A stretch of DNA of 64,000 nt, from positions 672,001-736,000 of the forward strand of contig CAVPNL010000006.1 in assembly GCA_963706575.1 (NCBI GenBank), given 5' to 3'. Of this stretch, positions 27,001 to 30,000 are shown one piece after another; position 1 is the stretch's first letter, and each line of letters begins with the position of its first letter. Made by a program: the position numbers. This DNA is from an uncultured delta proteobacterium (GTDB lineage: Bacteria > Desulfobacterota > Desulfobacteria > Desulfobacterales > JAHEIW01).

Positions 27001-30000
27001 TAAATTGCGGTGCATCTTGGCTTCTCAAAAACCAAAATGGGTGTGTGTGACGGTTGATCCGGGAATCTGCGGCTTTCCGTGTGTTATAAAGGCCCGCAAA
27101 ACAGGCGCTCGCGCGGTTTCGCTAAAAATTTCCGGTTCGGATTGCGAGCAGATTCAAAGACTGGCCGAGCGCCTTACGACTTTATCGATAAAAGAGCTGT
27201 TTACACCGCTGAGCCGCAATCCGGTATACATCTCAACTGAAAAGTCGGGTTGCCACCTCTCCTGTGCGATTCCGGTGGCGGTCATCAAGGCGGCTGAAGT
27301 GGCATTGGAGCTGGCGCTGCCGCAGGAAGTCCATATCAAATTCGAAGCGTGCTAGGAGCGCAACATCAATGCAAGAATCAAAAGTGGTTCCGTTTAAAGC
27401 CGGTGACGGCATATCGCATACCCTGACCCAGCGTCTGCTGGAAAAGGGCCGGTCATATGGCCTAAATGCGATTTTTCCGTTTGACATCGATAAAATTTCT
27501 GTGGCCGAATGGGTTCATCTTAAATGCCGTTACGGCTGTAACCAGTATAATACGAACTGGTGTTGCCCGCCGGCCACCCCTGATCCGGACAAGGTTCGTG
27601 CCGTTCTGTCGGAGTATTCCACCGCGCTCCTTCTGGTGGGAACCACAAATTGCTCGGACTTTTATCTGAACAACGAACGCAAGCGAATCTCTCAGGTCCG
27701 CTGCTGGAAGGGTACCATCAGCCTGGAACGCATCCTGTTTCTGGAGGGGTATTACAAAGCGTTCAGTCTTGTGGGGGAGTGTTGCGCCCTCTGCAAGGAA
27801 TGCGCCTACCCGGATGATTGCCGCTTCCCGCAAGAAAAAAGACCATCGGTGGAATCATTTTCCATTGATGTCATTGGAACCTTGAAAAATCTGGGTACCA
27901 CTTCAGCGGTTGCCGCTAAAACCTGTGAAACCTACAACTATTATGGCATTATTCTTTTGGAATAAACCCCGGAGGGCCATAATCAAAAATGGTTCTTGAC
28001 AATTTTAGTCGACAATGATGATAAGTATTTGTGATTCATCGTTCAGGATTGCTGCAGAGAATTTGCAACTGCGGACGGCTTATCTTTCCACCAGATAGCG
28101 GCAATTAGACCATGAAAGGAGGTGATGAAAAAAAAACGTTTATACAATTTTATGTAAAAACGTGACCCCTAATCAAAAACGAAAGGAGATTCCCAATGGC
28201 CAAACAAATGTTGATCGATGCCTATCGGGGAAAAAGAACGGAAAAACCACCCTGGGTACCATACGCAGGGGTTCACTGCGCCTTTTTGATCAATGAGCCA
28301 GCTGACAAAATGCTCAAGGATCCCAAGCTTTTGGCGAAAGGAGTCGTTAATGCCGCCAAGAGATACAAAGCGGATGGAATTCCACTGGTATTCGATCTTT
28401 CGGTCGAAGCCAATTCCATCGGGTGCGACCTGAAATGGTGGCCCGACAATGTCCCTTCCGTAACCAATCATCCCTGTTCCGACAAGACTCCCAAAGATGC
28501 CGGGCTCAAAATGCCCACCAAAGAATCGGGTCGCTGGCCGGTGCTTTATGAAGCCGCAAGAATTGCCAAACCTCAGCTGGATGAACTCGATTGCGTCCTG
28601 ATGGGTCTATTTTGCGGTCCTTTGACCCTGGCTTCCCATCTGGCCGGTGTGCGTATCTTTACCGATGTTTACAAAAATCCCGATTTTGCCGCCGAAGTTA
28701 TCAAATTTGCCGGTGAAGTCGGCGCGGCAGCTGCAAAGTTCTATGCCGAGATGGGTTGTGAGATTATCGCCATCGTTGATCCGGTGGCCTCACAGATTAA
28801 ATCCGAGACCTTCCAGAAATTTGTCACCCCCAATTCGCAACCGGCGATTAAAGCGATTCATGATGCCGGAGTGACCTCATCATTTTTCATTTGTGGCGAC
28901 TGCACCAAAGTCATGGAAGATGTCTGTAAGATCGGCACCCACGGCTTTGCCATTGATGAACAGCTCAATATGCTTTTTGTGCGGGATCTGGCACGTAAAC
29001 ACGGGGTGGGCTTTGGCGGCAATTTGAAGCTGACGCTGGCCCTGAGCCTCGGGTTATTGTCTCCCAGAGAGGATGCGATTGTGAGCTTGGCAGCAGGCGG
29101 GCAAGAAGGTTATACCTTCGCCCCTGGCTGAGATATGCCTTACGATGTTCCGGTGGAACATATGGATCAGGCCATCGAAGTCAGAGATTGGTTTGAACAG
29201 TATTATGCCAAGTATCCGGAATCTTGGTAAACAATTATAGAAAGGAGGATTCGGATCATGGCAGACAAAATTACCATTGATGTGCTGACACTGGACAGCG
29301 TGCAGTGCGCCGCCTGCGGCTACATGATGGAGTCCATCGCCGCTTTGCCATCTGATGTTCAGGATATGATCGTATACAAGGAATGGTCGATCAAAAACAA
29401 AGATGGCATTGGCAAGTTTCTGGAGCTGAAGGGTAAGGTACTACCGACCATCTGTATCGAGCGGGATCTGGTTTTTGAGAGTATCATTCCGCAATATGAG
29501 GAACTGATCGATGAGATGGCCAAACGGGCGCCGAATGACGATATGCGTGATCGTATCCAGGCCCTGCGCGAAACAGGATTTGAGTTCGATAAAATCCAGG
29601 AGAACCTGGCGAAAGCAGGAGCCGGCATGTCGACGCGCACAGATTCCAAAGTGCAATGATAACTGTATAAACATGCACAAGCCGGGCCCTGCAAAAGGCC
29701 CGGCTTGTTTAATTCTACAGGCCGGGAGACGTGTTCCTATTGGAAACCAATGAAGCGGCTGAAAAACTGAAAACGTTTGTCTTAACGCACGACCTGCCCA
29801 AAACAGACATGGCATTGTTCGGCATTAAATGCCCCTATTGCGGAAAATCCGATCGCATCCGGGAGCTGGAAGAACCGGATGCATTGAGCGCGAAGATAGA
29901 TTCGGAAAATGTGGCCATCTATTTTAACCTATGGGATCAACTTGCCCGCTCAAACGGATCGCTGGCAGTCTGCAAATTTTGTCAAAACCTTCTATTGCTG

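Follow-up and report, generated by a model that had tools for sequence, protein, structure and literature searches.

Organization of the locus

The locus carries a gene for a URO-D/MtaA-like corrinoid methyltransferase, here designated SecMT, together with genes for a second methyltransferase of this type, a corrinoid protein and its activase and, downstream of SecMT, for a thioredoxin-fold protein (TrxL) and a CobW/COG0523 GTPase (CobW1). Positions are numbered along the window, which is the entire 64,000-nucleotide stretch of DNA that was analysed (Table 1). Every gene that the preliminary description had placed in a corrinoid methyl-transfer cluster was found, the MtrH-family gene standing apart from the others. 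B12 genes are abundant in the window.

Table 1. Genes and sequence features of the SecMT locus, by position in the window.
Feature	Position	Strand	Remarks
MtrH-family (pterin-type) methyltransferase	15451..16434	+	Not adjacent to other cluster genes
Second URO-D/MtaA-like methyltransferase	22981..24057	+	Canonical H-x-C and PGC (His-Cys-Cys)
Corrinoid (B12-binding) methyl-carrier protein	24096..24767	+	Family match
RACo/AcsV-type reductive activase of corrinoid proteins	24937..27003	+	Family match
DUF6951 protein	27005..27355	+	Family match
DUF2284 predicted metal-binding protein	27264..27965	+	Actual start probably further into the ORF
SecMT, predicted selenoprotein gene	28196..29230	+	344 codons and TAA; URO-D/MtaA-like corrinoid methyltransferase
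SecMT codons 231-236, F-I-C-G-D-C	28886..28903	+	Cys233 is the Cys of MtaA H-x-C; Phe231 in place of His
In-frame TGA, predicted Sec312	29129..29131	+	Aligned to the C-terminal zinc-ligand Cys of MtaA
SECIS-like hairpin	29145..29161	+	7-bp stem ATGTTCC/GGAACAT, loop GGT, first loop G invariant
TrxL, thioredoxin/glutaredoxin-fold partner	29258..29659	+	133 aa; invariant C17-A-A-C20
Terminator-like GC-rich hairpin	29677..29708	+	Directly 3' of TrxL
Small conserved ORF	29731..30036	+	101 aa; no family; in 6/15 loci
CobW1, CobW/COG0523 metallochaperone-type GTPase	30636..31670	+	SecMT-linked
Thioredoxin-reductase-like (TrxR-like) flavoprotein	31791..32834	+	Family match
MIP channel	35633-36556	+	Last ORF in a run of plus-strand genes

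Conservation of the in-frame UGA codon and the downstream tail

As called, the SecMT ORF (28196..29131, +) encodes 311 aa and stops at the TGA; it bears no selenoprotein annotation, as had been noted. When this codon was read as selenocysteine (U), translation of the window DNA reproduced the 344-aa product of the preliminary description, which runs to the TAA at 29228-29230 and contains U312 within FAPG-U-DMPYD. The database counts given there also proved exact: of the best 120 database relatives, 116 have a length of 311 aa and one of 295 aa, and the other three reach full length. The full-length relatives (P0006, P0068 and P0098; 343-344 aa, 76-80% identity) have APG-C-DMP at the Sec site. 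Cys is likewise present at this position in P0122, L064 and L135, and a sister clade of 31-38% identity has PGC there throughout. In the Cys forms of SecMT the frame is open straight across the position of codon 312.

Conservation of the TGA, earlier claimed for Desulfobacterales, held in a larger sample of 401 genomes of the same order, in which matches were counted if they had at least 63% identity and spanned the Sec site. Exactly one in-frame TGA was present in 70 of the 71 spanning matches and none in the remaining one. Codon-by-codon reading of a subset of 50 of these loci (65-100% identity) showed that codon 312 is TGA in 49 and TGC in the other, L064. Outside the order, 7 of 8 genomes carried the TGA, and across the genome collection, which overlaps both of these sets, it was found in 77 of 78 spanning loci. 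The next stop lay 31-45 codons past the TGA in all 49 TGA-bearing loci, and the tail past the TGA is under purifying selection (pN/pS 0.04-0.52 for residues 313-341).

The genome contains selA, selB, selD and tRNA-Sec, all above curated cut-offs. Genome-wide reassignment of TGA was ruled out, since TGA is the ordinary stop for 18 of the 50 other ORFs of the window. RNA-library contigs from 4 studies cover the SecMT gene, and one spans the TGA; their source is relatives of 90-99% identity, and RNA libraries can contain DNA. Positions 27900-28091 of the window are without such cover.

A SECIS-like hairpin downstream of the UGA codon

The SECIS-like hairpin starts 13 nt past the A of the TGA, which equals the 16 nt first reported if counted from the U. 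Across loci it is formed by a 7-8 bp stem and a loop of G-[G/U]-N, with G in the apical loop. Across the 187 columns at which a residue with synonymous codons is conserved (mean codon entropy 1.32 bits), zero codon entropy was found only at V318 (GTT, 47/47) and P319 (CCG, 49/49), both of which fall inside the hairpin. Base pairing of the 7-bp core is preserved in nearly all 46 distinct sequences, and compensatory changes occur at two pairs. Formal covariation was weak because the stem hardly varies. The hairpin is absent from the Cys locus L064.

Folding of a 62-nt segment did not predict a stability above that of shuffled sequences (z = -0.10), and the case for the hairpin is therefore one of conservation and not of energy. 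No Rfam family was found at the site. Codons of the conserved peptide D-V-P-x-E-H run into the hairpin, and some of its conservation is therefore at the protein level.

Because the TGA is conserved, the tail is selected, a hairpin follows, Cys homologues exist and the Sec machinery is present, the predicted decoding of UGA312 as selenocysteine, also the earlier reading of this codon, is very well supported.

Fold and metal-site residues of SecMT

SecMT matched the Pfam family URO-D (PF01208) with E = 2e-47 and 162.3 bits, above the cut-off of 23.9, whereas its score against the NCBIfam family MtaA/CmuA (TIGR01463) was 134.5 bits, under the curated cut-off of 235.4. SecMT is therefore MtaA-like and not a member of that curated family, and the family assignment made in the preliminary description was narrowed to a URO-D/MtaA-like fold. 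The sole PDB sequence match was MtaA (4ay7; E = 9e-24, 24% identity). The AF2 model of SecMT (pLDDT 96.5) had 4ay8/4ay7 as its top structural match (TM 0.88, rmsd 2.2 Å). Truncation at the TGA would remove the last helix of the modelled fold (residues 320-336) and the ligand position.

The alignment to 4ay7 placed C233 on 'hiCg' and U312 on the Cys of 'apgCgi'; the latter had been reported before and agrees with the fold match. The site had been described as a zinc-ligand site; its two Cys positions correspond to Cys233 and the predicted Sec312, and its His is replaced by Phe (FFICG) in all 50 SecMT orthologues and in the sister clade. With Phe231, Cys233 and Sec312 where MtaA has His-Cys-Cys, the site departs from the canonical zinc site, and the loss of the His ligand makes the presence of a metal uncertain. 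At the E-E position of MtaA, SecMT has a D-E-[Q/N] motif (D253-E254) that is specific to its clade and may supply a carboxylate ligand. From the aligned residues, we infer that SecMT would possess a selenolate-bearing metal site.

Linkage of SecMT with TrxL and CobW

SecMT has two constant partners, the thioredoxin-like protein with its CxxC motif and the CobW/COG0523 GTPase. TrxL is next after SecMT in 13 of 15 loci; CobW1 is linked to SecMT in 12 of 15, the Cys-form locus being included in both counts. In the nearest paralogues, of 35-38% identity (P0129, P0131, P0132 and P0134), the enzyme is extended at its C terminus; the extension is Pfam Thioredoxin_3 in three of them and aligns to TrxL in P0132 and P0134.

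Genes for an MtmB-like protein and a corrinoid protein adjoin the group B orthologues of SecMT in 7 loci. Group B orthologues and the fused paralogues lie beside MtmB-like or MttB-family genes, and no MtrH gene was found within the 20 kb covered; in these loci SecMT is the sole second-step candidate. The trio of SecMT, TrxL and CobW is found beside differing first-step candidates, a His-Cys-Cys URO-D protein in the window and a non-pyrrolysine MtmB-like protein in distant orthologues, which suggests that the trio serves the second half-reaction, from methyl-corrinoid to acceptor.

Proposed function of SecMT and alternative explanations

SecMT is interpreted as a selenoprotein of 344 aa with the URO-D/MtaA fold, which would catalyse methyl transfer between a soft atom (S or Se) and a corrinoid protein and whose Cys/Sec metal site would be maintained by TrxL and CobW. 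The probability of this reading as a whole is estimated at roughly 0.7. UGA312 would be translated as selenocysteine with the aid of the small hairpin, placing Sec312 and Cys233 at both Cys positions of the MtaA His-Cys-Cys zinc site. With regard to the metal, the transfer direction and the functions of the two partners, we infer that a Cys/Sec(/Glu) metal site would activate the substrate atom, that the CxxC protein TrxL and the TrxR-like enzyme encoded nearby would hold the Cys-Sec pair in reduced form, and that the COG0523 GTPase CobW1 would load the metal. Such upkeep would parallel the re-reduction of the corrinoid by the RACo activase. The CobW genes might be devoted to cobalt or B12 instead of the SecMT metal, and the abundance of B12 genes in the window counts against the metal-loading role.

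SecMT could instead catalyse the substrate-side first step, demethylating a methyl-S/Se compound onto the corrinoid protein in the manner of Mlp/Sdm, from which an MtrH-type enzyme would pass the methyl group to tetrahydrofolate. An MtrH-family gene is present in the window, and in 5 related loci one immediately precedes the second URO-D gene; its product could be the true second-step enzyme, which would make SecMT substrate-side and counts against the main reading. Type 1 mlp clusters contain several URO-D homologues to which the demethylation of different methyl-S/Se compounds is ascribed, and methylcobalamin:selenide methyl transfer activity was shown for ClMlp2 (PMC10418091). The group B and fused loci, with their MtmB-like or MttB-family neighbours and surroundings free of MtrH, argue against a first-step role, which we regard as possible and somewhat unlikely.

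A second alternative retains the selenocysteine and dispenses with the metal. Sec312 and Cys233 would then be a redox-active or nucleophilic pair regenerated by the CxxC protein TrxL and the TrxR-like enzyme, and Sec would either take the methyl group directly from methyl-Co(III) or enter a selenenylsulfide at each turnover. The replacement of His by Phe in all orthologues and the sister clade is consistent with such a pair, as are the TrxR-like gene in the cluster and the status of the thioredoxin-fold CxxC protein as the most constant neighbour, fused to the enzyme in paralogues. However, the COG0523 metallochaperone-type GTPase is nearly as constant, and both zinc-site Cys positions and the acidic motif at the E-E position of MtaA are retained; moreover, we know of no corrinoid methyltransferase with a covalent Se- or S-methyl enzyme intermediate. 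A metal-free pair is thus considered unlikely. The specific proposal that Sec312 is the direct nucleophile on methyl-Co(III), giving a Se-methyl-selenocysteine intermediate and being regenerated by Cys233 and the CxxC of TrxL, is judged quite improbable; if true, it would constitute a thioredoxin-coupled covalent methyl relay, of a kind not known from corrinoid methyltransferases.

That the TGA is a true stop, yielding a 311-aa protein followed by 96 nt of untranslated sequence or pseudogene remnant, would agree with every gene caller, all of which halt there, and with the 311-aa database relatives, but appears highly improbable and is already contradicted at the sequence level by the selection on the tail and the position of the next stop 31-45 codons on, the Cys forms that read straight across, the loss of a helix and ligand position from a confidently modelled fold, and the presence of the hairpin and the full Sec machinery.

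Comparison with known systems

SecMT shares with MtaA, the methylcobamide:coenzyme M methyltransferase of Methanosarcina mazei (PDB 4AY7/4AY8), the TIM-barrel fold, the Cys of H-x-C, the C-terminal G-C position (predicted Sec in SecMT) and a gene position beside a corrinoid protein and an activase. In contrast to MtaA, SecMT is found in bacteria (sulfate reducers), has dedicated thioredoxin-like and COG0523 partners, and has Phe for His and predicted Sec for Cys; it shows 24% identity and scores under the curated family cut-offs. Coenzyme M should not be assumed to be its acceptor. In [NiFeSe] hydrogenase and formate dehydrogenase, a Cys ligand of the catalytic metal is likewise replaced by Sec; unlike the predicted SecMT site, these enzymes contain redox metals (Ni, Mo/W). 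Among the families in the searched portions of selenoprotein reviews, no zinc-type alkyl-transfer site with Sec was listed.

The searched text of the preprint of Kountz & Balskus (2023; PMC10418091) describes zinc binding through His-Cys-Cys in UroD-superfamily S-methyltransferases, and ties the Mlps of type 1 mlp clusters and the M. voltae sdm genes to methyl-S/methyl-Se metabolism and to genomes with Sec machinery. The two URO-D genes, corrinoid protein and RACo at 22981-29230 resemble a type 1 mlp cluster. Differences are that Mlps, except several Mlps1, are His-Cys-Cys whereas SecMT is Phe-Cys-Sec, and that type 1 clusters are without a tetrahydrofolate methyltransferase whereas the SecMT cluster has the MtrH-family gene, and so departs from the type 1 definition (PMC10418091, searched text). 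A Sec-containing Mlp is not mentioned in the text searched.

A 2026 review (PMC13188914) lists HgcA with Sec along with further 'organometallic' selenoproteins from the work of Haft and co-workers, and CobW-like and Thioredoxin_3 proteins are also on its selenoprotein lists. Sec-HgcA, although of another protein family, is a precedent for Sec in place of a functionally central Cys in corrinoid-dependent methyl transfer.

Novelty and distribution

The family had been put forward as new, and a URO-D/MtaA selenoprotein was indeed not described in the searched main texts of papers and reviews or in NCBIfam 20.0, a scope to which the novelty is limited and outside which lie Haft & Gwadz 2023 and Haft & Tolstoy 2025. 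If the reading is correct, SecMT would be the first of the URO-D/MtaA-type methyltransferases to carry selenium where the substrate is activated and would offer a natural test of the role of Sec in zinc-type alkyl transfer. The trio of SecMT, TrxL and COG0523 GTPase and the natural fusion suggest a system that maintains or couples such sites. As the protein is cut at the Sec codon in databases, the methyl-group metabolism and selenoproteome counts of its carriers are incomplete.

SecMT is widespread among sulfate reducers of marine and estuarine settings. By record title, the gene is present in two cultured strains, Desulfatitalea alkaliphila M08but and Desulfospira joergensenii DSM 10085, which makes the role of the module open to testing. 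Carriers named in this way also include an Olavius-associated 'Delta 1' proteobacterium; the selenoproteome of a symbiont named Olavius 'Delta 1' was reportedly surveyed in 2007.

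Reading frame and conservation of the TGA codon

The 311-aa ORF closed by a TGA (see table) remained open in the same frame for 32 further codons, up to a TAA at 29228-29230. With the TGA read as selenocysteine (U), the product, SecMT, has 344 aa and carries U312 within FAPG-U-DMPYDVPVEH. Residues 3-329 matched URO-D (Pfam, E = 2e-47), and the top NCBIfam model was MtaA/CmuA (TIGR01463; 134.5 bits, below its cut-off of 235.4); none of the selenoprotein-specific models of NCBIfam release 20.0 matched.

A search of 401 genomes of the order found SecMT matches of at least 63% identity in 65, the window's own genome counted. 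Exactly one in-frame TGA was present in 70 of the 71 site-spanning matches, and none in the other. In 50 of these loci read codon by codon (65-100% identity), codon 312 was TGA 49 times, the frame then closing at codons 343-357, and TGC once, in L064. A phylum sample (401 genomes) added eight carriers outside the order, of which seven had a single TGA and the eighth lacked it. The genome-collection scan, which overlaps the order and phylum samples so that the counts are not independent, kept 80 loci, 78 of them spanning the site: TGA stood at codon 312 in 75, was displaced to the following codon by a one-residue insertion in two, and was replaced by TGC only in L135. The tail after the TGA is coding: pN/pS of codons 313-341 was 0.04-0.52 over ten comparisons (upstream codons, 0.08-0.31). 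Cys occupied the U312 position in the three full-length database proteins (P0006, P0068 and P0098) and in the representative P0122, followed in all four, as in the Sec forms, by D-x-P-[YF]-D-x-P.

Genes for selenocysteine insertion (selB, tRNA-Sec, selA and selD) were all found in the window's genome. Its selD has an in-frame TGA, which makes SelD a selenoprotein too; on another contig, a further selD-like gene appears in two pieces, one with a TGA. Genome-wide reassignment of TGA was ruled out because this codon ends 18 of the 50 family-supported ORFs in the window. SecMT and the next gene were covered by contigs from four metatranscriptome libraries (four studies), one contig bridging the TGA; these derive from 90-99% relatives, and DNA carry-over is possible.

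SECIS-like hairpin

A hairpin downstream of the TGA was kept in all 49 TGA-bearing loci. The stem reaches 8 bp in the more distant orthologue group, the loop is G-[G/U]-N, and compensatory changes occurred at two stem pairs. Over 187 alignment columns, each holding a conserved residue in a degenerate codon family, mean codon entropy was 1.32 bits; it was zero only at V318 (GTT, 47/47) and P319 (CCG, 49/49), both within the stem and loop, and next lowest at E321 and H322 (0.33 bits). The hairpin is therefore under an RNA-level constraint added to the protein-level one. Counting against it, shuffling the sequence did not make the 62-nt fold less stable (z = -0.10). Of the Cys loci, L064 has no such hairpin; L135, from an uncultured Desulfonema sp. 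MAG, retains it (ATGTTCCGTTGGAACAT), apparently as a relic SECIS left by a recent change from Sec to Cys.

In a quick tree with SH-aLRT support only, all 61 SecMT orthologues formed a single, long-branched clade (support 100), with the six Cys forms dispersed among the Sec forms and P0122 earliest. This topology is consistent with a single gain of Sec and several reversions to Cys.

Novelty

The proposal of a new selenoprotein family was borne out: SecMT is a genuine family and, on database labels and the literature searched, probably undescribed so far. The best 120 database relatives were unnamed or called uroporphyrinogen decarboxylase (family), MtaA/CmuA family methyltransferase or hypothetical, and none bore a selenoprotein label. 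No URO-D/MtaA selenoprotein was found in full-text literature searches (their scope excluding supplements, Haft & Gwadz 2023 and Haft & Tolstoy 2025), by term look-up in the family tables of 2022 and 2026 reviews, in the main text of Peng et al. 2016, in deep-Sep 2025, or in Table 2 and text passages of the 2007 Olavius symbiont study. SecMT, with its TGA and hairpin, is also encoded in a record titled 'Olavius sp. associated proteobacterium Delta 1'. Related clusters were described and tied to selenium metabolism by Kountz & Balskus (PMC10418091), with no Sec in the methyltransferases reported in the sections consulted.

Position of U312 and the proposed mechanism

The preliminary description had put Sec at the zinc-ligand Cys of MtaA, the methylcobamide:coenzyme M methyltransferase of Methanosarcina mazei. 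That placement held. MtaA (4ay7) was the only solved relative by sequence (E = 9e-24), and the alignment set U312 on the Cys of 'apgCgi' and C233 on that of 'lhiCgn'; an AlphaFold model (80-row alignment, pLDDT 96.5) had 4ay8 and 4ay7 as its closest structures (TM 0.88). The canonical site, however, did not hold. UroD-superfamily S-methyltransferases bind zinc via His-Cys-Cys, according to Kountz & Balskus (PMC10418091), but the His is Phe (FFICG) in 50 of 50 SecMT orthologues and in most of the sister clade at 31-38% identity. L-H-I-C-G and G-C are present in more distant relatives and in the second URO-D protein of the window. Where MtaA has E-E, the His-less clade retains D-E-[Q/N], which could supply a carboxylate ligand.

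We propose that SecMT is a corrinoid methyltransferase with an activating site made up of Cys233, Sec312 and perhaps Glu254. This site most likely holds a metal, which the COG0523 GTPase would load; the Cys-Sec pair, prone to oxidation, would be held in the reduced state by the CxxC protein TrxL together with the TrxR-like enzyme. A metal-free enzyme with Sec as nucleophile may operate instead; the metal-site chemistry is attractive but unproven.

Gene neighbourhood

Linkage was followed in 15 loci, each with 20 kb of DNA (8.75 kb for one short contig). TrxL came next after SecMT in 13 and CobW1, a CobW/COG0523 GTPase, was present in 12, the Cys-form locus being among them. Orthologues of at least 75% identity had most of the window's cluster in common, with MtrH immediately 5' of the second URO-D gene in five loci. 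Those of 65-72% identity lay in the setting GntR / corrinoid protein / MtmB-like / SecMT / TrxL / CobW / ABC transporter, and neither MtrH nor RACo occurred within the DNA fetched. The MtmB-like (monomethylamine methyltransferase-like) gene always adjoins SecMT and the corrinoid protein there; the 460-aa product in L068 has no in-frame stop and thus no pyrrolysine, and copies in L069, L071, L074, L075, L076 and L078 are 77-84% identical to it. Because SecMT pairs with unrelated first-step methyltransferases, a second-step role is favoured. SecMT may instead be the substrate-side enzyme, a role compatible with the MtrH gene of the window's cluster.

The nearest paralogues (35-38% identity, about 460-540 aa) lack the His as well. 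P0129, P0131, P0132 and P0134 bear a C-terminal CxxC extension, matched by Thioredoxin_3 (Pfam) in three of the four and aligning with TrxL in P0132 and P0134. Such fusion is independent evidence that enzyme and TrxL cooperate. Four fused loci were fetched, and the two readable ones, both from one family of the order, lay beside an MttB-family gene, a BCCT transporter and RACo, and beside a URO-D gene, corrinoid protein, RACo, CobW and DUF1638, respectively.

Features of the window and of other loci
Feature	Position	Strand	Remarks
ATP:corrinoid adenosyltransferases	7095-7661; 39679-40209
DUF1638	7740-8501
CobW/COG0523-type GTPase	12102-13112	-
MtrH family	15451-16434	+	upstream of SecMT
V4R, PAS histidine kinase, LuxR-type response regulator, B12-radical-SAM protein		+	after MtrH, upstream of SecMT
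Second URO-D protein	22981-24057	+	His-Cys-Cys; upstream of SecMT
Corrinoid protein, RACo activase, DUF6951		+	between second URO-D gene and SecMT
DUF2284	27264-27965	+	same interval
ORF closed by TGA	28196-29131	+	311 aa
TGA codon	29129-29131	+	in-frame, U312
Hairpin	29145-29161	+	ATGTTCC-GGT-GGAACAT; 13 nt after UGA
TrxL	29258-29659	+	133 aa, CxxC, thioredoxin/glutaredoxin fold; right after SecMT
GC-rich inverted repeat	29677-29708		terminator-like, strong, 12-14 pairs; directly 3' of TrxL
101-aa ORF		+	beyond the repeat
CobW1	30636-31670	+	after the 101-aa ORF
TrxR-like enzyme, PadR, second CobW-like protein, MIP channel		+	downstream of CobW1
CobW/COG0523-type GTPase	33959-35152	+	the second CobW-like protein of the preceding row
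Cobalamin riboswitches	48544-48730; 51867-52079	-
Cobalamin riboswitch	52394-52590	+
selD	G000:C5:349796-350719		in-frame TGA
selD-like	G000:C3:438965-439886		two pieces
MtmB-like	L068:10773-12155	-
Fused His-less URO-D methyltransferases	L082:9698-11044; L085:8986-10338

The inverted repeat suggests a transcription unit whose last genes are SecMT and TrxL. The DUF2284 gene has no TGA; two curated selenoprotein models, those for MbdU and for the arsenite methyltransferase/DUF2284 selenoprotein, matched its product weakly through their C-terminal halves (77-86 bits; cut-offs 575-600). Three CobW/COG0523-type GTPase genes lie within 23 kb, and two ATP:corrinoid adenosyltransferase genes and a DUF1638 gene are also present. 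Genes for B12 uptake and the lower ligand occupy the right half of the window, where a TonB-dependent receptor with ExbBD/TonB, a BtuFCD-like ABC transporter and a DBI_PRT (CobT-type) gene are flanked by the three cobalamin riboswitches (71-103 bits).
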